Positions 12,152 to 25,165 of a stretch of DNA of 32,000 bases are shown here, in pieces. A program made the translations under genes and the position numbers. Positions within the stretch are counted from its first letter, which is position 1; every line of letters begins with the position of its first letter. Below the pieces are notes generated by a model. That model was not told the origin of the DNA and searched no databases. It saw nothing but the letters and a program-made list of their open reading frames with translations. The stretch comes from Candidatus Arthromitus sp. SFB-mouse-Japan (lineage in GTDB: Bacteria; Bacillota; Clostridia; Clostridiales; Clostridiaceae): the NCBI RefSeq assembly GCF_000270205.1, contig NC_015913.1:330001-362000 (forward strand), written 5' to 3'.

Positions 12152-13453
12152 ATGAACGTTCAGTTAAATAATCTTGAAAATAGTAGGGTAGAATTTATTA
12201 TTAAGATAGATAAGAAAGAATTTTCTGATGCTATACAGATGTCTTTTAAGAAAAATGTTTCTAAATATAATATACCAGGATTTAGAAAAGGTAAAATTCC
12301 GTTTGAAATATTCAGGAAAATGATTGGAGTCGAGGCGCTTTATAATGATGCTGCAAATATTTTGATAGAGAGAACTTATAAAAATGCTGTTGAAGATCAT
12401 AAGGTTGAAGTTGTAGATTATCCTAGTATAGATATTATAAATTGTAAAGGGGGAGAAGACTTTGAATATAAAGCAACTGTATATGTTAAACCGAATGTAG
12501 TACTTGGAGAGTATAAGTATTTAGATGTAGAGGAAGTTAGCTATGAAGTAAATGATAATGATATTGAACAAGAATTGCAAAATTTAAGAGAAAAAAATGC
12601 ACGCTTAATTTTAAAAGATGGGACTATAGAGAATGGTGATATAGTTGTAATAGATTTTAAGGGATTTATAGATAATGAACCGTTTGATGGTGGAGAAGCT
12701 AAGGATTATAATTTAGTGATAGGATCAAATAGTTTTATAGATAATTTTGAAGATCAGCTTATTGGTAAATCTAAGGGTGATAAGGTAGATGTAAATGTTG
12801 TGTTTCCAATTGACTATGGTGTTGATAAATTAAAGGGTAAAGAGGCTAAATTTGAAGTTAATATAAATGAAATAAAAGTTAAAGAATTAGAAGAATTGGA
12901 TGATAATTTTGCAAAAACTTATTCTGAATTTAGTACTTTAGATGAATTGAAAAATAGCATAAGAGAGAAGAAAATTAAAGATAATGATACGAAGCAAAAA
13001 TATGAGTTTGAGAATTCTGTTATAGAGAAAGTGTGTAGTAATTCCCAAGTTGATATTCCTGAACCAATGATACAAAGTGAAATTGATAGACTTATACATG
13101 ATTTTGAGAATAAAGTAAAGTACCAAGGCACAACTTTAGAACAATATTGTCAATATTATGGTATAGGTTTGGATGATATAAGAAATAATTTTAGAGATAG
13201 GGCAGTTAAACAAGTTTTATCTAATTTGGTTATAGAAGAGATATCTAAAAAAGAAAATATATCAGTAAATGGGGATGAGCTTGATGTCAAGGCATTAGAA
13301 TTAGCTAAGATGTACTCTCATGATGAGGAAAAAATTAGTTCTATTAAAGAGAGTCTTTTATCATCATATAAGGATTCTTTAAAGAGAGATATAGTTATGT
13401 CAAAGACTGTAGAATTTTTAGTAAATCAAAATAAAAAAAGAGGTATTAAATAG
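12152..13453 (+). CDS. tig: Trigger factor
   Basis: Ribosome-binding signature PGFRKGKIP, a central FKBP-type PPIase region (DFKGFIDNEPFDGGEA) and the expected length. Sits upstream of clpP-clpX. Confidence 0.95.
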   Translation: MNVQLNNLENSRVEFIIKIDKKEFSDAIQMSFKKNVSKYNIPGFRKGKIPFEIFRKMIGVEALYNDAANILIERTYKNAVEDHKVEVVDYPSIDIINCKGGEDFEYKATVYVKPNVVLGEYKYLDVEEVSYEVNDNDIEQELQNLREKNARLILKDGTIENGDIVVIDFKGFIDNEPFDGGEAKDYNLVIGSNSFIDNFEDQLIGKSKGDKVDVNVVFPIDYGVDKLKGKEAKFEVNINEIKVKELEELDDNFAKTYSEFSTLDELKNSIREKKIKDNDTKQKYEFENSVIEKVCSNSQVDIPEPMIQSEIDRLIHDFENKVKYQGTTLEQYCQYYGIGLDDIRNNFRDRAVKQVLSNLVIEEISKKENISVNGDELDVKALELAKMYSHDEEKISSIKESLLSSYKDSLKRDIVMSKTVEFLVNQNKKRGIK

Positions 13454-13477
13454 AGTGTATTTTAAAGGAGGAGACTT

Positions 13478-14062
13478 ATGGCTTTAGTACCTATAGTTGT
13501 TGAGCAGACAAGTAAGGGTGAACGCTCTTACGATATATATTCAAGGTTATTAAAAGAACGTATAATCTTTTTAGGAGATGAGGTAAATGATGTTACCGCG
13601 AGTTTAGTAGTTGCTCAATTATTATTTTTAGAAAGTGAAGATACAGATAAGGATATACATTTATATATAAATAGCCCTGGAGGGTCTATAACAGCAGGTA
13701 TGGCTATATATGATACTATGCAATATATAAAGCCAGATGTATCCACAATTTGTATAGGTATGGCTGCATCTATGGGAGCATTTTTATTATCTTCTGGAGC
13801 TAAGGGTAAGAGATTTGCATTACCAAATAGTGAGATAATGATACATCAACCATTAGGTGGGTTTAGAGGTCAAGCAACAGACATAGATATACATGCAAGA
13901 AGAATATTAAGAATGAAGAATGATTTAAATAAAATATTGAGTGAAAATACAGGTAAATCACTATCCCAAATAGAGTTAGATGTTGAGAGGGATCATTTTT
14001 TGAGTTCTTATGAAGCTAAGGAATATGGATTAATAGATAATGTTATAAGTAAGAAGAAATAA
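13478..14062 (+). CDS. clpP: ATP-dependent Clp protease proteolytic subunit
   Basis: [19 protein letters not shown], catalytic Ser context [11 protein letters not shown] and His context MIHQPLGG. Confidence 0.97.
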
Positions 14063-14093
14063 TATTTATTGAGTCTATTTGCGGGGTGTAGTT

Positions 14094-15353
14094 ATGGCGA
14101 AATTAGATGAAAGCAAGCAATTAAAATGTTCTTTCTGTGGTAAAAATCAGGAGCAAGTGAGGAGGTTAATTGCTGGTCCTGGGGTATATATATGTGATGA
14201 ATGTATAAATTTATGTTCAGAAATAATAACAGATGATTGTGTAGATGAACAAAAGGTTGAGGTATCTAAGGTACCTAAACCTATGGAGATAAAGGATTAT
14301 TTAGATCAATATATTATAGGTCAGGATAAAGCAAAGAGATCAGTGTCAGTAGCTATATATAATCATTATAAGAGAATTAATTCACTTATAAAAGATAATA
14401 GCGTTGAGATACAAAAAAGTAATATATTATTACTGGGACCAACTGGTTCTGGAAAGACTTTAATAGCCCAAACTTTGGCAAAATTTTTGAATGTACCATT
14501 TGCTATAGCTGATGCTACGACGTTAACTGAAGCTGGATATGTTGGAGAAGATGTAGAAAATATATTGTTGAAGTTGATACAGAATGCGGATTATGATATA
14601 GAGCGTGCTGAAAAAGGCATAATATATATAGATGAAATAGATAAAATTGCTAGAAAGTCTGAAAATCCTTCTATAACTAGGGATGTATCTGGCGAAGGTG
14701 TTCAACAGGCACTACTTAAGATATTGGAAGGTACGGTAGCATCTGTACCACCACAGGGTGGGAGAAAGCATCCGCATCAGGAATTTATACAAATAAATAC
14801 TTCTAATATATTATTTATTTGTGGTGGTGCTTTTGATGGTATGGAAAGGATTATAGAGCAAAGAATTAATGTTAGAGCTATGGGATTTGGAGCGGATATA
14901 AGTTCTAAGGAGAATAAGGAATTAGATAAAATATTTGCTAATATATTACCAGAAGATTTATTGAAGTTTGGATTAATACCTGAGTTTATAGGGCGTTTAC
15001 CTATACTTGTTTCATTAAATGCATTAACTGTGGATGCATTAGTTAGAATATTAAAAGAACCTAAAAATGCTATAGTAAAGCAATATAAGAAATTATTTGA
15101 ATATGATGAGGTTGAATTAGAGTTTGAAGAGAAAGCGCTCGAATGTATATCGAGGAAAGCTATTAGTAGGAATACTGGAGCTAGAGGTCTTAGAACTATA
15201 GTTGAAGATTTGCTGATTGATGTTATGTATAATATACCTTCAGATAAAAATATAGATAAAGTTGTAGTAACTGAAAGGAGTGTAGATGATAAAAAAATAG
15301 ATATTTTTTATAAAAAAGATGGAAAAGGTAATAATGACATAGAAAGTGCTTAG
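14094..15353 (+). CDS. clpX: ATP-dependent Clp protease ATP-binding subunit ClpX
   Basis: N-terminal zinc finger CSFCGK...CDEC, Walker A GPTGSGKT, Walker [10 protein letters not shown], plus GFGA and IPEFIGRLP motifs. The ATG at 14094 (MAKLDES) is preferred over the listed TTG at 14079. Confidence 0.97.
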
Positions 15354-15382
15354 TTAAATAAAAATGTTAAGTAGGATTTAGA

Positions 15383-15949
15383 ATGTTTATATATGATAGT
15401 AAATTTATAAAATCAGCAGTAAGTTGTAAAGATTTTCCTAATGATGGATTAAAGGAAATAGCTATTGTAGGAAGGTCTAATGTAGGTAAGTCTAGTTTAA
15501 TAAATTCGTTATTACAACGTAAAAGGATAGCAAAGGTTAGTTCTACTCCAGGTAAAACAAGGACTTTAAATTTTTTTTTGATAAATAATTCATTCTATCT
15601 AGTAGATTTACCTGGATACGGTTACGCTAAGGTTTCTAAAAGTGAAAGGGATTCGTGGAAGTATATAGCAGAATCATATTTTAATAATAGAGTGTATATA
15701 GATAGGGTTATACTTTTAATAGATTCGAGGCATGATCCGTTTGAAAGTGATGTAACGATGTATAATTGGATTAATAGTTTGAATTATAAGATAGATATTA
15801 TAGCCACTAAATCTGATAAATTAAGCTATTCTCAGATTAAAAAAAATGAGCATATTTTTAAGAGACAGTTTAGTAAGTCTAATATATTATTTTACTCCTC
15901 TTTGAAAAATTATAATAGGGATGAATTGGTAAATTTTATATTTTCATAG
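15383..15949 (+). CDS. engB: Ribosome-biogenesis GTPase EngB/YsxC (YihA)
   Basis: G1 GRSNVGKSSLIN, G2-region PGKTR, G3 DLPGYG and G4 TKSDK. Canonical position after clpX. Confidence 0.92.
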   Translation: MFIYDSKFIKSAVSCKDFPNDGLKEIAIVGRSNVGKSSLINSLLQRKRIAKVSSTPGKTRTLNFFLINNSFYLVDLPGYGYAKVSKSERDSWKYIAESYFNNRVYIDRVILLIDSRHDPFESDVTMYNWINSLNYKIDIIATKSDKLSYSQIKKNEHIFKRQFSKSNILFYSSLKNYNRDELVNFIFS

Positions 15950-16056: not shown

Positions 16057-16584
16057 ATGGATTTTATGAATTTTATGAATCAAGTTGGCAATAATTGTGA
16101 AGTAGGCCATAGAAATCATATTCACGATAATTGTGGATGCTGTTCACCAAACATTGGAAATCATCATAATGGATTTTCTGGTTTATTACCATTACTTTTT
16201 TTATCTGGTTTGGGTCAGACATCAAGCTGTAATTTAGGCAATATGGTTTGTTATCCAAATCAATGTCAAACACAACAATATGTAACCCCTACTTCTGTAC
16301 CTTGTTTTAATAATGGATTAAAATATAAAACTAAAAAAGTTAGACAAGCATATATGGAAGTTCCTGTTTCAACTTATCAGGTAGCTCAACCTTACTACCC
16401 TTATCCGCAACAATTACCAATAACTGCAAATATGGGTTCTATAAATGGTAATAGGTGTTCATTTGATTTATCTACTATTCTATTATTTTTGCTTTTATGT
16501 AGTAGAAATAATAATAGATGTATGAATGTATGTAATCCACCACATCATAATAGACCATGTGGAAGTTGTTCAACTGAAATATAA
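16057..16584 (+). CDS. Hypothetical Cys/His/Asn/Pro-rich protein (possible spore-coat or exosporium-type protein)
   Basis: Strong RBS AAGAGGAG 7 nt upstream. 175 aa with 14 Cys (including DNCGCC, NRCMNVCNPPHHNRPCGSC), 7 His and a PYYPYPQQ stretch. Two short Leu-rich hydrophobic patches (GLLPLLFLSGLG, STILLFLLLCS). I recognise no family. Confidence 0.6.
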   Translation: MDFMNFMNQVGNNCEVGHRNHIHDNCGCCSPNIGNHHNGFSGLLPLLFLSGLGQTSSCNLGNMVCYPNQCQTQQYVTPTSVPCFNNGLKYKTKKVRQAYMEVPVSTYQVAQPYYPYPQQLPITANMGSINGNRCSFDLSTILLFLLLCSRNNNRCMNVCNPPHHNRPCGSCSTEI

Positions 16585-16685: not shown

Positions 16686-17111
16686 ATGTCAAAACGCAAA
16701 AAGTCCTATGATAGAGCAGAATATGAAAATAATTATTATAATAATAGACTTATAGATAGTAATTATGTAGGTAATAATTTTAATCCATATTTAAATACTA
16801 AATTTCAATTTAATAATTTTAATGATATTTATAATAATTTGAATAATATTATGGATGTACTTAATAATGTAGATATTAATAATTTGAATAACATTTTTTC
16901 TTTATTATCTAATGGTTTTGATATTAATAATAATTTTAATGTTGAGAATAAAACGAATAATATATTTGATGAAATTCATAATAAAAATGAAATAATTATT
17001 AACTTTTTAAATTCTTTAAAACCTTTATTGGGAATTGAATTTGGTAATATAATAGATAGATTTATAGATTTTTATATGGAAGAAATAAATTCTGAGAAAG
17101 GTTGTATGTAA
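16686..17111 (+). CDS. Hypothetical Asn-rich low-complexity protein
   Basis: RBS AGGGGTG. 141 aa with repeated NN-x motifs (NNLNNIMDVLNNVDINNLNNIF) and a C-terminal helical segment LNSLKPLLGIEFGNIIDRFIDFY. Followed by a terminator. Confidence 0.5.
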   Translation: MSKRKKSYDRAEYENNYYNNRLIDSNYVGNNFNPYLNTKFQFNNFNDIYNNLNNIMDVLNNVDINNLNNIFSLLSNGFDINNNFNVENKTNNIFDEIHNKNEIIINFLNSLKPLLGIEFGNIIDRFIDFYMEEINSEKGCM

Positions 17112-17200: not shown

Positions 17201-17237
17201 ATAAGACCATCTTTTGTTGATGGTCTTATATTTTTTG
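17201..17237. terminator. Rho-independent terminator between convergent units
   Basis: ATAAGACCATC (17201-17211) pairs with GATGGTCTTAT (17219-17229), followed by ATTTTTT. It closes the plus-strand pair and may also serve the minus-strand trio. Confidence 0.7.
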
Positions 17238-17389: not shown

Positions 17390-17893
17390 CTACAGTTTTC
17401 TTATAGTGTTATTTGAATATATTAATGTTATTATTCTTGTTAAAAATAAATCGTATATTATAAATATAGTAGAAAATATGAGTATTCCTGTTAGCATAAT
17501 AAAAGGTGTTATTTTTATAGGAAAAAATAATTTAGAATACATAAAAAATATGGGTAAAAATATTACGTTAAAATATAGTATTTTAAGTGTAAGTTCAAGC
17601 TTTATATTATTTAATCTTTCTATGTAAAACTTTATTAAGGGATATGAACCGAAAAAGATAAAATATATAATACTATATTCAATTATACCTAATATTAAAG
17701 AGGATATTATAGATGATACCATTATTAACAATGAATGCTTACTTCCAAATTTTATTATCGATATGCAAATTAATAATGAGGATAAAGTTAATAAGCTTAA
17801 ATCTGCAGTTGATATTAACCTACATAATATAAAAAGCATTACTGTAAGAGATGTCATTATTGAGGATTTTGTTAATTTATGTGTATTTTTCAT
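17390..17893 (-). CDS. Small polytopic membrane protein, third gene of the coupled trio
   Basis: About 167 aa, almost entirely hydrophobic helices (roughly five). The ATG at 17891-17893 shares one base with the upstream stop (TAATG). The listed TTG start at 17902 is less likely. I recognise no family motif. Confidence 0.6.
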   Translation of the reverse strand: MKNTHKLTKSSIMTSLTVMLFILCRLISTADLSLLTLSSLLICISIIKFGSKHSLLIMVSSIISSLILGIIEYSIIYFIFFGSYPLIKFYIERLNNIKLELTLKILYFNVIFLPIFFMYSKLFFPIKITPFIMLTGILIFSTIFIIYDLFLTRIITLIYSNNTIRKL

Positions 17894-18471
17894 TAACAGC
17901 AAGTTATAAAATCACAGCCACAACATTCGCAACATGAATCTATACACCATAATGTACAACAAGTATCGCAGCATCCATATCCATGATTTGTAGTAACTCT
18001 TTTTGAATAGGTTTTTCTAAATTGATTGTTTATGTTTTCAAATGAGTTGTAAGCATTGCTATATTCGAAGTTATTGGGCTCTAAATTATATGCGATTTCA
18101 AAGTGATTTCTACTCTTATCATACCAGCCTTCTTTGTAGTATATCTGACCCATTAAATAATTCCATTCTGCATTTCTATCTTCAATTTTCCAAAGTTTAT
18201 TTTTTGCTTCATCTAGTTTGTTTAAATTTATCAATTCTCTAATTTGTGATAGTGATATTCTTTGATTATTAGGATTAATAAATAAATTATTCATTAAATA
18301 ATCGTAGGCACTGTTTAACTCTGAGATTTTTTTATTTATTTCTTCATAGTTTGAGCTGTTGTTAATAAGTTGTTCATTATATATATTAATTAAGTTTTTA
18401 TAGGAGGATTTTACTTGATCTAATGATGCATTTTCATGCAATTTTAATATTTCAAAATATTTTTTATACAT
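17893..18471 (-). CDS. Degenerate J-domain / TPR-like protein with a C-terminal cysteine string
   Basis: The N-terminus aligns by eye to J-domain helices I-III (KYFEILKLHENASLDQVKSSYKNLINIY...INKKISELNSAYDYLMN), but NEQ replaces HPD. TPR-like AEWNYLMGQIYYKEGWYDKSRNHFEIAYNLEPNN. Tail GCCDTCCTLWCIDSCCECCGCDFITCC. The start overlaps the upstream stop (ATGTATAA). Confidence 0.7.
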   Translation of the reverse strand: MYKKYFEILKLHENASLDQVKSSYKNLINIYNEQLINNSSNYEEINKKISELNSAYDYLMNNLFINPNNQRISLSQIRELINLNKLDEAKNKLWKIEDRNAEWNYLMGQIYYKEGWYDKSRNHFEIAYNLEPNNFEYSNAYNSFENINNQFRKTYSKRVTTNHGYGCCDTCCTLWCIDSCCECCGCDFITCC

Positions 18472-19375
18472 TCATAGACACTTCCTTTTTATTATTGCAA
18501 TTAAAGTTATTTATGATTTTATCTGTTTTAAAAGGCATTCCTAATTGTAGTATATTTTCAATTAAATCATAGTTTTTATTTAATTTCAAATACTTAAAAT
18601 TTTCAAGACAATTGTAGTTAACATGAGTTAAGAGTGGATAATATTTATCTTGTATTGACTTTTTAAATTTTTCTATGTTTATTTTTTCTTTTGTAATATT
18701 ATGTATATGAATTATGGGATTAAAGGAGCTAGTTTTGAGATCTTTTTCTATATCATTTAGTGAATCTATTATATATATCCATTTACCTAGACTGTAAGAT
18801 AGTCTATTTATATGTACTAGGGTTTTATTGTCGAAATCATTAAATTTACAATAAAAATTAAATATTTCTTTCATTAGATTGCTAAATGGATGTGCATATT
18901 CGTCTATTGATAAAATTTTATTTTTATTTTCAAGTTCTTTTAAATTTTTCAGATGATTATTTATTTTATGTTTAATATTATTAAGATAGTTTGGTAAATT
19001 TTGCATATATTTATTGGAAATTGGGAGAAGTATTTTTGAAAGTAAATTATTTTCATCATTAATATCGTCAACAATTTTATTATGTGTTAAAATTATATTT
19101 ATGTGACTTGAGTATTCTATGCTAGATATATTTTTCATTATATATTTTTTTTCAATTGGATGAATCAAGCATACCTTTTTTTCTATAACTGGTTTTTTAA
19201 TTGAGAAACTATCAAGGAATATAGCCATAAAAGTTATATCGAAATTAAGGCTTATTCTCGGGATATTTCCATAATTTTTTTTAATTGTGTGACATAGGCT
19301 ACAATAATAGCTTTTAAATGTGTTATAGTGTTTTAATTTTAAATCCATTTTAAATGGATATATATATCCAAACAT
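18464..19375 (-). CDS. DUF5685-like protein of unknown function with DDxxD and DxxxD Asp-rich motifs
   Basis: The N-terminus MFGYIYPFKMDLKLKHYNTFKSYYCSLCHTIKKNYG matches my recollection of the DUF5685 family. DDIND lies at aa 103-107 (nt 19055-19069) and IDSLNDIEKD at aa 203-212. The protein is largely helical and has no TM segment. Confidence 0.65.
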   Translation of the reverse strand: MFGYIYPFKMDLKLKHYNTFKSYYCSLCHTIKKNYGNIPRISLNFDITFMAIFLDSFSIKKPVIEKKVCLIHPIEKKYIMKNISSIEYSSHINIILTHNKIVDDINDENNLLSKILLPISNKYMQNLPNYLNNIKHKINNHLKNLKELENKNKILSIDEYAHPFSNLMKEIFNFYCKFNDFDNKTLVHINRLSYSLGKWIYIIDSLNDIEKDLKTSSFNPIIHIHNITKEKINIEKFKKSIQDKYYPLLTHVNYNCLENFKYLKLNKNYDLIENILQLGMPFKTDKIINNFNCNNKKEVSMNV

Positions 19376-19508
19376 TTTACATTAACCTTTCCTAACATTT
19401 TTTATCTTAAGAGTATAACATAAAAAAGTAATTATTAAATAAAAATTGTGTAATAAAAATAAATATTAAATTTATTAGATTAGATAATTTATTCGGAGGT
19501 GATGGTAT

Positions 19509-19673
19509 ATGGAATGTTATTTTTTGTCAACTTCGGTTGAAATTGTAGAATGCTTTAAAGAATGTGTTTATTATAATGTGAATAAAGAAAATCCAGCTGA
19601 AGATTGTCCTTTTGCACAGGTATTTAATGGGAAAAGTTATAGAGATTCAGATCAACAAGCTATAAATAATTAG
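19509..19673 (+). CDS. Small 4-Cys protein (54 aa; not in the ORF track)
   Basis: GGAGG lies 9 nt upstream of the ATG. Hand translation gives MECYFLSTSVEIVECFKECVYYNVNKENPAEDCPFAQVFNGKSYRDSDQQAINN*. An in-frame stop lies immediately upstream and a strong terminator follows. Confidence 0.5.
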   Translation: MECYFLSTSVEIVECFKECVYYNVNKENPAEDCPFAQVFNGKSYRDSDQQAINN

Positions 19674-21998: not shown

Positions 21999-23633
21999 AT
22001 GAAAGAACAATCTACTGGTAGGAGTTTTATATCTTTATCTTTTGCAAGTATTCTTGTAAAAATTATGTCCCTTTTATATGTTCCAATAATTATAAGAATA
22101 TTGGGAGATGAAGGATATGGGATTTATTTAGCTTCTTATGATATATTCAGTCTAATATATGTTATAACAAATTCTGGTATGCAAATCGCTATATCTAAGC
22201 AAATTGCTGAATTTGTTGCTATTAATGAATCGCAAAACATTTTAAAAGCATTTCAGATTGGGAATAGGATCCTATTTATTATAGGTTTTGTAGGTTCCAT
22301 TGTTTTATTTTTAATTGCCAAACCAATTTCTTCATTGATAGGTAGTGAAAGAGCATATTTAGGAATTTTATTTCTATCTCCAACTATATTTTTCACATCT
22401 ATATTAGCGGGGTATAGGGGATTATTTCAAGGTATATCAAATATGACACCCATAGCATTATCTCAAGTGCTTGAACAAATATGTAATATTTTTATAAGTA
22501 TATTTTGTGCGTCGATGCTGGTAAATAATAGTTTAGAATTAGGAGCTGCAGGAGGTACAGTTGGTACTACAGTTGGTGCGATTATAGCTATTATATTTTT
22601 ATGTATGACTATGAGGAAACAAAGAATATTGTATAATTTGAACATATCGGTGCCATATTTAAATTGTGAACTTGAGAGGAGAGAAAGCGATTCTACAAAA
22701 GATATAATATTTACATTTTTTAAATATGGTATACCTGTAATATTGACATCTGGAATACAGTATGTGGGGGCTGTTATAGATTTAGCTCTTGTTAAAAATA
22801 GACTTATGTTTGCTGGTTTTGATTACTCAACAGGGGATATTTTATATGGGTTACTTGGGAAATATAAAACTCTTATATATGTACCACTTGCTATTATTGC
22901 GGCTTTATCTGCAGCAGTTATACCTAGTTTGGTTAAATCTGTCGTACTTAAGGATAGAAATAATTTATTTAAAAAAATAAGATTTGCATTAAAGACAAGT
23001 TTATCAATATCAATACCTTCGTGTGTTGGATTAGCTTTGTTAAGTAGACCGATATATCTTATTTTATTTTCTACAGAGTATAGTAGTGGATATACCTTAA
23101 TGCTTTATGGATCTAGTCTTGTAGTATTTATGTCTATTGTGCAAATTCAAACTACTATACTTCAAGGATTAAACAAATTTTATTCGGTATTTACAAGTTT
23201 ATTTATTGGTGTCTTATTAAAATTATTGAGCAATTATTTTTTAGTTGGCATACCGAGTATAAATATAAATGGGGCTATTATAGGGAGTATAGTTGGATTT
23301 TTAGTACCTATGATTATAAATGGTATATTGATTAAAAAATATATAGGATTTAAGGGTATGGGTTTAATAAATAGTATAAAGCCATTCATTTCTTCTATTG
23401 TGATGGGTATTTTTATAATAATATTTTATAAATTTAATTCATTTTTATTTATGAATAATAATTCTATTATAATTAAATATTTAACTTTTGGTTTAGTAGT
23501 GATATTTGGATGTATAGTATATTTTGTATTTATAGTTGTTTTGAGATATTTTAATAAGGAAGATTTGGAATTTATACCTTCGTCTATTATTAGAATTATA
23601 CCTAAAAAAATAATGAGTAAATTCTTTAATTAG
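21999..23633 (+). CDS. MOP-superfamily flippase (MurJ/YtgP-like polysaccharide or lipid II flippase)
   Basis: 544 aa with about 14 hydrophobic helices. N-terminus ASILVKIMSLLYVPIIIRILGDEGYGIYLASYDIF..MQIAISK is typical of the YtgP/SpoVB family. Confidence 0.75.
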   Translation: MKEQSTGRSFISLSFASILVKIMSLLYVPIIIRILGDEGYGIYLASYDIFSLIYVITNSGMQIAISKQIAEFVAINESQNILKAFQIGNRILFIIGFVGSIVLFLIAKPISSLIGSERAYLGILFLSPTIFFTSILAGYRGLFQGISNMTPIALSQVLEQICNIFISIFCASMLVNNSLELGAAGGTVGTTVGAIIAIIFLCMTMRKQRILYNLNISVPYLNCELERRESDSTKDIIFTFFKYGIPVILTSGIQYVGAVIDLALVKNRLMFAGFDYSTGDILYGLLGKYKTLIYVPLAIIAALSAAVIPSLVKSVVLKDRNNLFKKIRFALKTSLSISIPSCVGLALLSRPIYLILFSTEYSSGYTLMLYGSSLVVFMSIVQIQTTILQGLNKFYSVFTSLFIGVLLKLLSNYFLVGIPSININGAIIGSIVGFLVPMIINGILIKKYIGFKGMGLINSIKPFISSIVMGIFIIIFYKFNSFLFMNNNSIIIKYLTFGLVVIFGCIVYFVFIVVLRYFNKEDLEFIPSSIIRIIPKKIMSKFFN

Positions 23634-23655
23634 GAATTTACTCATTATTTTTATT
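23605..23655. terminator. Bidirectional terminator between the convergent flippase genes
   Basis: ATGAGTAAATTC (23613-23624) pairs with GAATTTACTCAT (23634-23645), flanked by an A-run upstream and a T-rich run downstream. It overlaps the 3' end of the plus-strand gene. Confidence 0.55.
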
Positions 23656-25165
23656 TAATATTAAATGGGCGTTGTCTTATATCACGGACGAGAGTTATTC
23701 CAAAAGCACCGAAGCCACAGAAAATTATTAATAGGTTTTGTATAATATCAAACTTAGGTGGTATATAAGATTTTATTAAATATAGTACTAATATCATCAA
23801 TATACCTAAAAGTATATAAATGATATATTTTGTTATTTCTAGTTTAATTTTAATGTTCTTTTTAATTTCTTTAACATTTAAAATTATGGATAAACATGAA
23901 TCTACTATTATTGCTATAGCGTAGCTAAATATATTTATTTTTGTAAAACCAGCTAATATATATATGATTAAAATTTCTATTATTGAACATATTAGAGAAT
24001 TTAATAATATTTTATTTTGTTTGCCTAGTCCGTTTAAAATACTGTATGTAGTTATTGAAATGAAAAATACTGGAGTTACGATACTTGCAAACCAAATATA
24101 TGATCCTAAATCAGTTCTCTTATAGAACATATATGATAATTCATCTGGTATTACAAAACATATAACCATAGTTGCAAGCCCGAGTATAAATGATATTTTT
24201 ATTACTTCTCGTATTCTCTTTTCAGCAGACTTAATTTCATTTTTGCTTATGGACTTTGATAAATCTGGAATTAATAAAGTAGAGATCGAACTTATTATTA
24301 TAAGTGGAAATAGTACAATATTTAGAGCCATACCATTGAATTTACCTATTACGGATAAGGCTTGTGTATAATTAAGACCAGATTTAATAAGTCTTCTGGG
24401 GATTATAAGTGTTGTTAATGTACTTAATAGTGTTGTAATTAAACCATTTATACATAATGGAAATGCTATTTTTAACATATCTTTTAATAATCTTCTTTTT
24501 GTAGTGGATATAGGTAGATTATTATTATATTTATTTTTAATTTTCCTATAATAAGAGTATAAAAAAACATAGCTTAGAAATTCGCCTATACAGATCGATA
24601 CATATGCTGCAGTTACTGTAGCTTCTACAGTTTTTAAATTAAATGATTTAATGACTATTATCAATACTATTATACGTATAGATTTTTCTAATATATCGAT
24701 TATAGATGGTATATTTATTTGGGATGTACCGTAGAAGTATCCCTTAAGTATATTTGATATAGAAATAAATATCATAGCAGGGCAAATTATTTTAATAGAA
24801 GTAATTATTCTTATATCTTTTATTATAAATTTGGCAATAATAGGGGCAAGAGTATATACGATTATTGCAATTATTAGTGACCATATCAGAGTAAATATCA
24901 TTGATGTTTTTATTGTTATATTAACTTTATTAAAGTACTTATTATCAAAATATATAGAAGTTAGCCTTGATATAGCAGCTAATATACCACCACACATTAG
25001 ACATATGAAAAGATTGTATATGGGCATAAGAAGACCATATAATCCTAAGGCTTCAGCACCAAGTTCTTTTGAAAGAATAATTGAGAATATAAAACCTAAT
25101 ATACCTGTTAATATATTTGAAGAGCTCAAAATAAAAGATTTTTTATAGAAATTTCTATTTTCCAA
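23651..25165 (-). CDS. MOP-superfamily flippase, SpoVB-like (stage V sporulation protein B candidate)
   Basis: 504 aa, polytopic. N-terminus ILTGILGFIFSIILSKELGAEALGLYGLLMPIYNLF. TTG start with AGGAGG 8 nt upstream. The SpoVB versus MurJ assignment of the two paralogs is not resolved. Confidence 0.7.
   Translation of the reverse strand: MENRNFYKKSFILSSSNILTGILGFIFSIILSKELGAEALGLYGLLMPIYNLFICLMCGGILAAISRLTSIYFDNKYFNKVNITIKTSMIFTLIWSLIIAIIVYTLAPIIAKFIIKDIRIITSIKIICPAMIFISISNILKGYFYGTSQINIPSIIDILEKSIRIIVLIIVIKSFNLKTVEATVTAAYVSICIGEFLSYVFLYSYYRKIKNKYNNNLPISTTKRRLLKDMLKIAFPLCINGLITTLLSTLTTLIIPRRLIKSGLNYTQALSVIGKFNGMALNIVLFPLIIISSISTLLIPDLSKSISKNEIKSAEKRIREVIKISFILGLATMVICFVIPDELSYMFYKRTDLGSYIWFASIVTPVFFISITTYSILNGLGKQNKILLNSLICSIIEILIIYILAGFTKINIFSYAIAIIVDSCLSIILNVKEIKKNIKIKLEITKYIIYILLGILMILVLYLIKSYIPPKFDIIQNLLIIFCGFGAFGITLVRDIRQRPFNIK

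Follow-up and report, generated by a model that had tools for sequence, protein, structure and literature searches.

The stretch of DNA analysed here (32,000 nucleotides of Candidatus Arthromitus sp. SFB-mouse-Japan, positions 330,001 to 362,000 of the forward strand of contig NC_015913.1, assembly GCF_000270205.1; 26% G+C; hereafter the window) carries on its minus strand three tightly packed open reading frames (ORFs), which our comparison identifies as an ancient, co-inherited module of the class Clostridia that is not peculiar to this genome of the segmented filamentous bacteria (SFB). The genes are, in order of transcription and with positions counted from the first letter of the window:

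18464-19375, minus strand: ORF1, 303 aa, a DUF5685 protein that models as a divergent class I isoprenoid-synthase-fold protein; presumed catalytic subunit
17893-18471, minus strand: ORF2, 192 aa, with a degenerate J-domain, a tetratricopeptide repeat (TPR) and a C-terminal Cys motif
17390-17893, minus strand: ORF3, 167 aa counted from the ATG at 17893, a six-helix membrane protein

A first-pass annotation of the window had described three minus-strand ORFs joined by start/stop overlaps, and the coordinates and both overlaps were confirmed from the sequence: ORF1 and ORF2 share 8 nt (ATGTATAA at 18464-18471) and ORF2 and ORF3 share 1 nt (TAATG at 17891-17895), making a translationally coupled trio. 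The mechanical ORF list begins ORF3 further out, at a TTG (17902). To place the trio in a wider setting, one genome per species was scanned with a DUF5685 protein alignment, which yielded at least 572 relatives, and 80 loci were taken. Scored by tblastn with the three window proteins, the trio is adjacent on one strand in 77 of these 80 species-level genomes with DUF5685, and at least two of the three exceptions (L003 and L026) are loci cut off directly behind the DUF5685 match. When all ORFs of the 80 loci were clustered without bias, the three families appeared in 80, 78 and 77 loci, followed by a CYTH-domain gene (27/80) and leuS (21/80) as the next commonest neighbours. The ORF1-ORF2 junction is overlapping in 51 of the 77 species and the ORF2-ORF3 junction has a median gap of 22 nt.

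An exhaustive HMMER search recovered 861 representatives of ORF3 homologs, and the genomic context was looked up for eight distant ones with 24-27% identity. The J/TPR/Cys-tail gene precedes ORF3 in each of the six distant contexts examined upstream (L082, L083, L084, L086, L087/88 and L089) and is itself preceded by the DUF5685 gene wherever the contig permits; the same trio is present at L090/91, while contigs L085 and L092 were too short for their context to be examined. The synteny spans Clostridium sensu stricto, a Cellulosilyticum/Niameybacter/Sporanaerobium group and GC-rich Clostridia, whose trio members share 24-27% identity with those of the window, and the flanking genes vary. The trio around distant ORF3 homologs and the synteny in 77/80 species therefore identify it as an ancient module, and the proposal made in the first-pass annotation that the three genes form a dedicated module stands, as the families do co-occur outside this genome, with changing flanks and as far away as the GC-rich trios. 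Essentially all Clostridium species sampled carry it, among them C. perfringens, C. sporogenes, C. tetanomorphum, C. tyrobutyricum and acetogens, and so do members of other Clostridia orders. In six loci from Cellulosilyticum, Niameybacter, Sporanaerobium and related metagenome-assembled genomes (MAGs), the gene order is ORF2-ORF1-ORF3 and ORF2 is shortened to 130-134 aa, comprising the TPR and tail only. An apparent fusion of DUF5685 with ORF2 in L039 was rejected, a stop codon being present.

The closest species-level relatives of the window are Candidatus Arthromitus-type MAGs of SFB (ORF1 63-65% and clpX 86-89% identity), and the exact ORF2 protein is recorded in hundreds of metagenome contigs. 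The flanks of the trio in the window (clpX, engB, an M20 peptidase, an rluD-like pseudouridine synthase and MurJ-like genes) are syntenic in the three closest SFB-type genomes only and therefore carry no functional signal. The trio has been kept in the reduced SFB genome, which argues for a core function.

ORF1 matches DUF5685 (PF18937) over profile positions 1-271 of 272 (E 1.3e-78; 264.6 bits, well above the gathering score of 26.7 bits), in agreement with the family named for its N-terminus in the first-pass annotation. The AlphaFold2 model, built on an alignment of 70 sequences, has a mean predicted local distance difference test (pLDDT) score of 89.7 and a predicted template modelling (pTM) score of 0.89. 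When this model was compared with the PDB by Foldseek, the first 50 matches were all trans-isoprenyl diphosphate synthases (trans-IPPS) or related prenyltransferases (probability 0.99-1.0, template modelling (TM) scores of 0.4-0.59, approximately 300-350 aligned columns), including Rv0562, hexa-, hepta- and octaprenyl, geranylgeranyl diphosphate (GGPP) and farnesyl diphosphate (FPP) synthases and the prenyltransferase Ord1. The order of helices in the model matches the ten-helix trans-IPPS core, and ORF1 models as a cryptic, divergent member of the class I isoprenoid-synthase fold. Its conserved positions fall into three sites:

19055-19069, minus strand: first Asp motif, D103-D104-I-N-D107, at the C-terminal end of the fourth long helix (residues 84-108)
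18740-18766, minus strand: second Asp motif, D204-x3-D208-x3-D212, at the C-terminal end of the eighth long helix (residues 183-207)
19160-19303, minus strand: N-terminal metal-site candidates C25, C28, C69 and H72, the three Cys invariant and H72 variable

D103, D107, D204, D208 and D212 are invariant in the 70-sequence alignment and in a further class-wide alignment reaching down to 24-26% identity, as are K100, E149, D158, C25, C28, C69 and the N-terminal M-F-G-Y-x-x-P, and an invariant G-K/R-W-I-Y stands directly ahead of the second Asp motif. In trans-IPPS, with the architecture of avian FPP synthase, the first aspartate-rich motif (FARM) lies on helix D and the second (SARM) on helix H. 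We take the two Asp motifs of ORF1 to occupy the FARM and SARM positions, an assignment by helix order and the general fold rather than by residue-level superposition. The first-pass annotation had allowed that ORF1 might prove to be a non-enzymatic helical bundle with unconserved Asp motifs; it models instead with an isoprenoid-synthase fold, and the motifs are invariant.

At the N-terminal site, the model places C25 and C28 within helix 14-35 and C69 and H72 within a beta-hairpin (residues 63-81). H72 is found in most sequences, an extra Cys (C-R-C) is present in three GC-rich lineages (L082, L086 and L090), and one Cellulosilyticum sequence has neither. Three fixed Cys with an exchangeable fourth ligand are seen both in [4Fe-4S] clusters with a substrate-binding iron and in Zn sites that activate thiols for alkyl transfer. 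Residues 1-7 of ORF1 (window 19355-19375) carry the M-F-G-Y-x-x-P motif, which is invariant to 24% identity with the position of the initiator Met included, and this suggests a function for the N-terminus itself, which might cap the active site or supply a metal ligand.

The second protein of the trio combines three elements:

18286-18471, minus strand: J-like domain, residues 1-62, with the His-Pro-Asp (HPD) motif replaced by NEQ
18070-18171, minus strand: TPR, residues 101-134 (TPR_2, 27.8 bits against a cut-off of 27)
17896-17973, minus strand: C-terminal Cys motif CCDTCCTLWCIDSCCECCGCDFITCC, 12 Cys in 26 residues

The window's ORF2 scores below the gathering threshold for DnaJ (PF00226; E 3.3e-5, 24.3 bits against 27.8), its J-like domain aligns with HPD-bearing orthologs, most orthologs match that family, and HPD, the tripeptide between helices II and III that is needed for stimulation of Hsp70, is kept in 74 of the 85 orthologs aligned. 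The description of ORF2 as an HPD-less J-domain protein is thus right for the window and reflects a local degeneration: the SFB clade, with NEQ, and at least one further clade have other residues in place of HPD. The J-domain is wholly missing in the Cellulosilyticum-type group. The loss of HPD in some clades and of the whole domain in one lineage points to DnaK recruitment as an accessory, dispensable feature and to the TPR and tail as the conserved core of ORF2. The TPR-like repeat noted previously is borne out by the TPR_2 match and holds the invariant AEWNYL...G...A...P.N.EY.

The 12 Cys in the last 26 residues of ORF2 were likewise counted again and confirmed. Across the 85 orthologs the tail follows the consensus C(88%)-D-x-C(100%)-x2-L(93%)-[W/Y]-C(94%)-x-D(99%)-x2-C(100%)-E(88%)-C(87%)-x-G-G-D-L-I-x-C-C, with Trp at the aromatic position in 47/85, 6-14 Cys in the last 30 residues, the surplus Cys at variable positions, and, in every one of the 85, a last Cys that lies 0-1 residues from the C-terminus. 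Basic residues are absent from the tail, whose net charge is about -4, and searches with six variants (E up to 10) found no Pfam family for it. Because the Cys spacing is fixed, acidic residues are conserved and a C-x-C-x-G-G turn is present, the tail is most likely a metal-binding knuckle (Zn or Fe-S) rather than a lipidated string of the type found in cysteine-string protein (CSP). Its strict C-terminal position and variable surplus of Cys would also suit a role as thiol acceptor. The earlier likening of the tail to a CSP-like cysteine string was therefore given up in favour of a fixed-spacing acidic Asp/Glu/Gly-Gly motif devoid of basic residues.

No Pfam or NCBIfam model reaches its cut-off with ORF3. 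Its AlphaFold2 model (41-sequence alignment, pLDDT 95) shows six long transmembrane helices, in line with the previous view of a protein made of hydrophobic helices, and its conserved motifs are FFGxYPxxKxxIER and YD, the latter with an invariant D149 in helix 6. From the distribution of positive charge in the model, the N- and C-termini would be cytoplasmic and FFGxYPxxKxxIER would lie at the cytoplasmic end of helix 4. Helix 1 contains a small-xxx-small motif, and one or two of the 41 members give sporadic sub-threshold matches to DUF2232, ECF_trnsprt, ECF-ribofla_trS and the FolT family. In the public assemblies of this exact locus (L093-L095) ORF3 is not called and two antisense ORFs of 48 and 73 aa are annotated instead, the 73-aa call corresponding to window 17406-17627 on the plus strand. 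ORF3 is nevertheless a real gene, as its homology, synteny and model confidence establish, and it is systematically unannotated in SFB-type genomes. A word-indexed protein search with ORF3 returned six relatives only, because gene callers omit it. A 151-aa protein of Candidatus Arthromitus sp. SFB-1 (SFB1_193G1, our P0180) has a DUF5685 Pfam match and, over residues 70-148, 96% identity to ORF3 residues 4-82; the single-cell assembly probably has a chimeric or frameshifted call at that gene.

Three GC-rich lineages carry a fourth gene that overlaps the DUF5685 gene at its start (L082:180-563, L086:241-669 and L087:4057-4482); its product is an RseC_MucC protein with two transmembrane helices and a Cys motif. 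The conserved Cys of the cytoplasmic motif of E. coli RseC form an oxygen-sensitive Fe-S cluster (PMC11729352), and RseC is a partner of Rsx/Rnf (PMC9124969). Separate conserved Cys centres thus number three, at the ORF1 N-terminus, in the ORF2 tail and, in some lineages, in RseC. These three lineages and one more carry the genes as a block between cdaA-cdaR and yicC-remA-gmk-rpoZ-priA.

Several neighbours recur in other loci. The operon of the cyclic di-AMP (c-di-AMP) synthase, cdaA-cdaR, lies directly upstream of the trio in GC-rich lineages (L087 and L090), with an overlap in L090 between the stop of cdaR and the start of DUF5685. In its 27 species, the gene with a CYTH domain (triphosphate tunnel metalloenzyme) is directly upstream and on the same strand (e.g. 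L004:4442-4999). A thiamine or nucleotide link, drawn from RseC, the ThiT-like matches, the CYTH gene upstream and cdaA-cdaR, was judged too thin to be adopted.

The non-coding sequences on either side of the trio in the window are as follows:

19376-19508, minus strand: upstream intergenic spacer of 133 bp, between ORF1 and a divergent 54-aa ORF
17201-17229, plus strand: hairpin terminator with its T-run on the plus strand, shared with the convergent plus-strand gene 16686-17111

The 133-bp region ahead of the trio was confirmed and contains, before ORF1, a good Shine-Dalgarno sequence (AGGAAAGG) and, by eye, a TGnTATACT extended -10-like element; a generic promoter scan of the upstream region gave no score above background. 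Within the 200 nt before the operon in 80 species, no CIRCE, CtsR, Fur, PerR or Rex box and no sigE, sigK, sigG or sigF promoter is conserved, and heat-shock and sporulation-specific readings were dropped because no such operator or sigma promoter was found. The hairpin had been taken as the end of the trio. Its T-run is on the plus strand and its minus-strand side continues TAAAGG; it therefore primarily terminates the convergent gene 16686-17111 and is at best a weak bidirectional terminator for the trio. The window contains no riboswitch or other RNA detectable by Rfam, PADLOC gave no anti-phage defence match, and PHROGs returned noise-level matches for ORF2 and nothing more. Given no regulatory motif and no meaningful match in these databases, we see the trio as a housekeeping-type operon, without the look of a heat-shock, sporulation, phage or defence unit.

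Other genes of the window are described here for completeness. The divergent ORF (19509-19673, plus strand, 54 aa), 133 bp from ORF1, has four Cys (MECYFLSTSVEIVECFKECVYY...), shares 74-76% identity with counterparts in the three closest SFB-type genomes and is gene-called in public assemblies; it has no Pfam family. Downstream of the trio, ORFs 16057-16584 and 16686-17111 (both plus strand) are of low complexity, have no Pfam match and show patchy conservation in the closest relatives. One is rich in Cys, Asn, Pro and Gln and the other extremely rich in Asn, and they may be lineage-specific surface or spore-coat-type proteins. Within 12152-15949, position and partial evidence indicate the gene order tig, clpP, clpX; the GTPase gene engB follows directly. 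The lon gene, which sits between clpX and engB in many Firmicutes, is absent from that place in the window. At 21999-23633 (plus strand) and 23651-25165 (minus strand) stand two convergent paralogs of the MurJ/Polysacc_synt (SpoVB-like flippase) type, separated by 17 bp.

Our tentative preference, held at well short of even confidence, is that the trio encodes an enzyme complex which is associated with the membrane, depends on metal-thiolate centres and acts on a prenyl-type diphosphate. The three proteins would be subunits of one complex ancestral to class Clostridia, with ORF1 as the catalytic core in which Mg2+ held by the two Asp motifs would bind a prenyl (or similar) diphosphate, and with a putative extra metal-thiolate centre, made of three Cys and an exchangeable fourth ligand, at the ORF1 N-terminus. 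ORF2 would be the obligatory soluble partner whose TPR and acidic Cys tail work with ORF1, its N-terminal J-domain recruiting DnaK in most lineages, a link that would have been lost in the lineage of the window. ORF3, which faintly resembles the S-component of an energy-coupling factor (ECF) transporter, may anchor the complex and hold a lipophilic substrate or product. The Cys motifs of ORF1 and ORF2 (and of RseC where it is present) would serve as metal-thiolate centres for catalysis, electron supply or assembly.

The nearest known enzymes, the trans-IPPS (FPP, GGPP and heteromeric hexa- and heptaprenyl diphosphate synthases), have in common with the ORF1 model the all-alpha class I fold, being its sole class of PDB neighbour, and two Asp-rich motifs (FARM and SARM in the trans-IPPS) placed where the fourth and the eighth long helix end; the medium- and long-chain enzymes among the matches also need a second, non-catalytic subunit. 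In contrast to them, the Asp motifs of ORF1 are about 100 rather than about 130-140 residues apart, the first is DxxxD in distant orthologs and the second D-x3-D-x3-D. ORF1 further differs in adding an N-terminal Cys3(+His/Cys) site, a beta-hairpin and the invariant MFGYxxP, and in having a J/TPR/Cys protein and a membrane protein as partners, and it has no detectable sequence or profile similarity to them.

A number of observations weigh against the proposed diphosphate-dependent complex. The Foldseek E-values for ORF1 are about 3e-3, with TM scores of 0.5-0.6 at best, neither Pfam nor NCBIfam gives a polyprenyl_synt match, a profile of 70 DUF5685 sequences run against all PDB sequences returned noise only (SecA, eS17), and hhalign of DUF5685 against E. 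coli IspA returned nothing. The best PDB neighbours of ORF3, RibU and ThiT, are weak (E about 1-4, TM 0.45-0.5). RseC is limited to some lineages, and neither the window nor the set of 80 Clostridium-type loci has a detectable one. Most Clostridia are not known to require a further trans-prenyl enzyme. That any of the Cys motifs binds metal is a prediction, and so is a placement of the Asp motifs facing a central cavity as in trans-IPPS.

Among the other readings, we regard as rather doubtful a non-catalytic chaperone or assembly module, in which the trio would assist the insertion or maturation of an Fe-S or membrane protein, an Rnf-type complex for instance. ORF2 would act as a specialised J/TPR co-chaperone directed to the membrane, its tail binding Zn as the Zn finger of DnaJ does, and ORF1 as a helical scaffold, with acidic motifs that bind structural metal only. 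Such a role would suit the genuine J-domain of the 74/85 orthologs with HPD, the TPR, the association with the Rnf/Rsx partner RseC and the housekeeping neighbourhood of the GC-rich lineages (cdaA-cdaR upstream, yicC-remA-gmk-rpoZ-priA downstream), but the J-domain can be dispensed with, HPD having disappeared from at least two clades and the entire domain from a further one, the upstream region holds no CIRCE or CtsR heat-shock operator, and Asp triads that stay invariant at the catalytic positions of the fold over class-level divergence are hard to explain in a scaffold. The likeness to the RseC/Rsx(Rnf)/ApbE system is confined to the RseC_MucC gene overlapping the DUF5685 start in the three GC-rich lineages; it differs in that no rnf genes adjoin the trio and the window has no RseC. 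An uptake or salvage unit, with ORF3 as a group II ECF S-component for a vitamin-like or lipid compound and ORF1 processing the import by diphosphate chemistry, seems to us quite improbable. RibU and ThiT are the best structural neighbours of ORF3, which resembles S-components (RibU, ThiT, FolT) in its length of about 170 aa, its six helices and its probably cytoplasmic termini, and the scattered weak family matches, the small-xxx-small motif in helix 1 and the retention of the trio in auxotrophic SFB point the same way. Every one of the similarities is below significance, however, no ECF A/T energising genes occur beside the trio in any locus examined, and the obligatory Cys-tail protein would be left unexplained. 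That the three are fortuitous neighbours or mis-called ORFs with no functional link has next to no probability: the one observation in its favour, the short antisense ORFs called in place of ORF3 at this locus, is outweighed by the synteny, which refutes it, all three genes being kept in 77/80 species, by the 861 ORF3 homolog representatives, by the pLDDT of 95 of the ORF3 model and by the distant ORF3 homologs that again adjoin the other two families.

An unlikely reading, though one of greater consequence, is a dedicated protein thiol-prenylation (alkylation) system in which ORF1 would prenylate the extreme C-terminal Cys of ORF2. The ORF1 fold would ionise the prenyl diphosphate, the thiol would be activated at a Zn site of ORF1 made of Cys3 plus the exchangeable ligand (as in farnesyltransferase, MetE and BHMT), and the lipidated J/TPR protein would then dock at ORF3. 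This would account for the isoprenoid synthase fold and invariant Asp motifs of ORF1, its three invariant Cys with a variable fourth ligand, the varying number of extra Cys and the fixed position of the last one (0-1 residues from the C-terminus in 85/85), and the overlap of enzyme and tail-protein genes in 51/77 species; there is also the precedent of eukaryotic J-proteins that are lipidated, Ydj1/DNAJA being farnesylated and CSP palmitoylated. The tail, however, is strongly acidic, has no basic residues and carries a conserved CxC-x-GG knuckle unlike known lipid-anchor tails, and the tight 1:1 coupling is more in keeping with a complex than with turnover of a substrate by an enzyme. To our knowledge no endogenous bacterial protein S-prenylation has been described. 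The remaining probability is for something not yet imagined. The prenyl or lipid chemistry suggested in the first-pass annotation has gained indirect support from the ORF1 fold, while the part that made the tail its substrate, or a modified element, is not supported by this analysis.

Gene logic of the kind this thiol-prenylation scheme assumes is known from comQ-comX-comP of Bacillus, where ComQ, an isoprenyl-transferase-fold enzyme, prenylates the C-terminal part of ComX, encoded by the overlapping next gene. As in the trio, a protein of about 300 aa of isoprenoid-synthase type is followed by an overlapping gene for a C-terminal-element protein and by one for a membrane protein. ComQ is recognisable by sequence as a polyprenyl synthetase, whereas ORF1 has no polyprenyl_synt match; ComX is small, secreted, hypervariable and modified on Trp, whereas ORF2 is a highly conserved cytoplasmic J/TPR protein of about 190 aa in which Trp, the acceptor residue of ComX, is not invariant (47/85 only), a further point against thiol prenylation; and ComP is a histidine kinase, whereas ORF3 has no kinase domain.

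Eukaryotic DNAJC5 (palmitoylated) and Ydj1/DNAJA (farnesylated on a CaaX box) resemble ORF2 in having a J-domain followed by a Cys-bearing C-terminal element with a terminal Cys at or next to the C-terminus. DNAJC5-type proteins have a functional J-domain and a dense, variable run of palmitoylated Cys with hydrophobic or basic flanks. In contrast to these proteins, HPD is missing from the J-domain of the window and the entire domain from some lineages, the ORF2 tail is a fixed-spacing acidic motif that is neither a variable Cys run nor a CaaX box, and the trio has no DHHC or alpha/beta-barrel prenyltransferase. Any resemblance of ORF2 to lipidated eukaryotic J-proteins is convergent.

In the literature on DUF5685/PF18937, or on a J-domain with cysteine-rich and TPR elements in Clostridium, no description of the module was found, in accordance with the earlier statement that no bacterial system of this kind had been described; the sole paper naming DUF5685 merely lists the family, and the literature on RseC and DnaJ held nothing relevant. 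No known system combines the parts of the trio, in which ORF2 represents a J/TPR family with a new C-terminal motif and ORF3 an unclassified membrane family, and we rate the module as new as a system.

None of the three proteins has a known function, though the module is widespread in Clostridia, including pathogens and the immunomodulatory SFB. Recognition of DUF5685 as a hidden branch of the isoprenoid-synthase fold, should the model hold, turns an anonymous operon into one that is experimentally approachable. If thiol prenylation were true, the trio would be the first endogenous bacterial protein thiol-prenylation system and would parallel, by convergence, farnesylated Ydj1/DNAJA and cysteine-string protein, its co-chaperone being tethered to a membrane receptor dedicated to it. 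The module could turn out to be an isoprenoid enzyme complex of a new kind in anaerobes, a new Fe-S or Zn relay at the membrane, or a case of bacterial protein prenylation, each of which would be new biology in bacteria that matter to medicine and industry.

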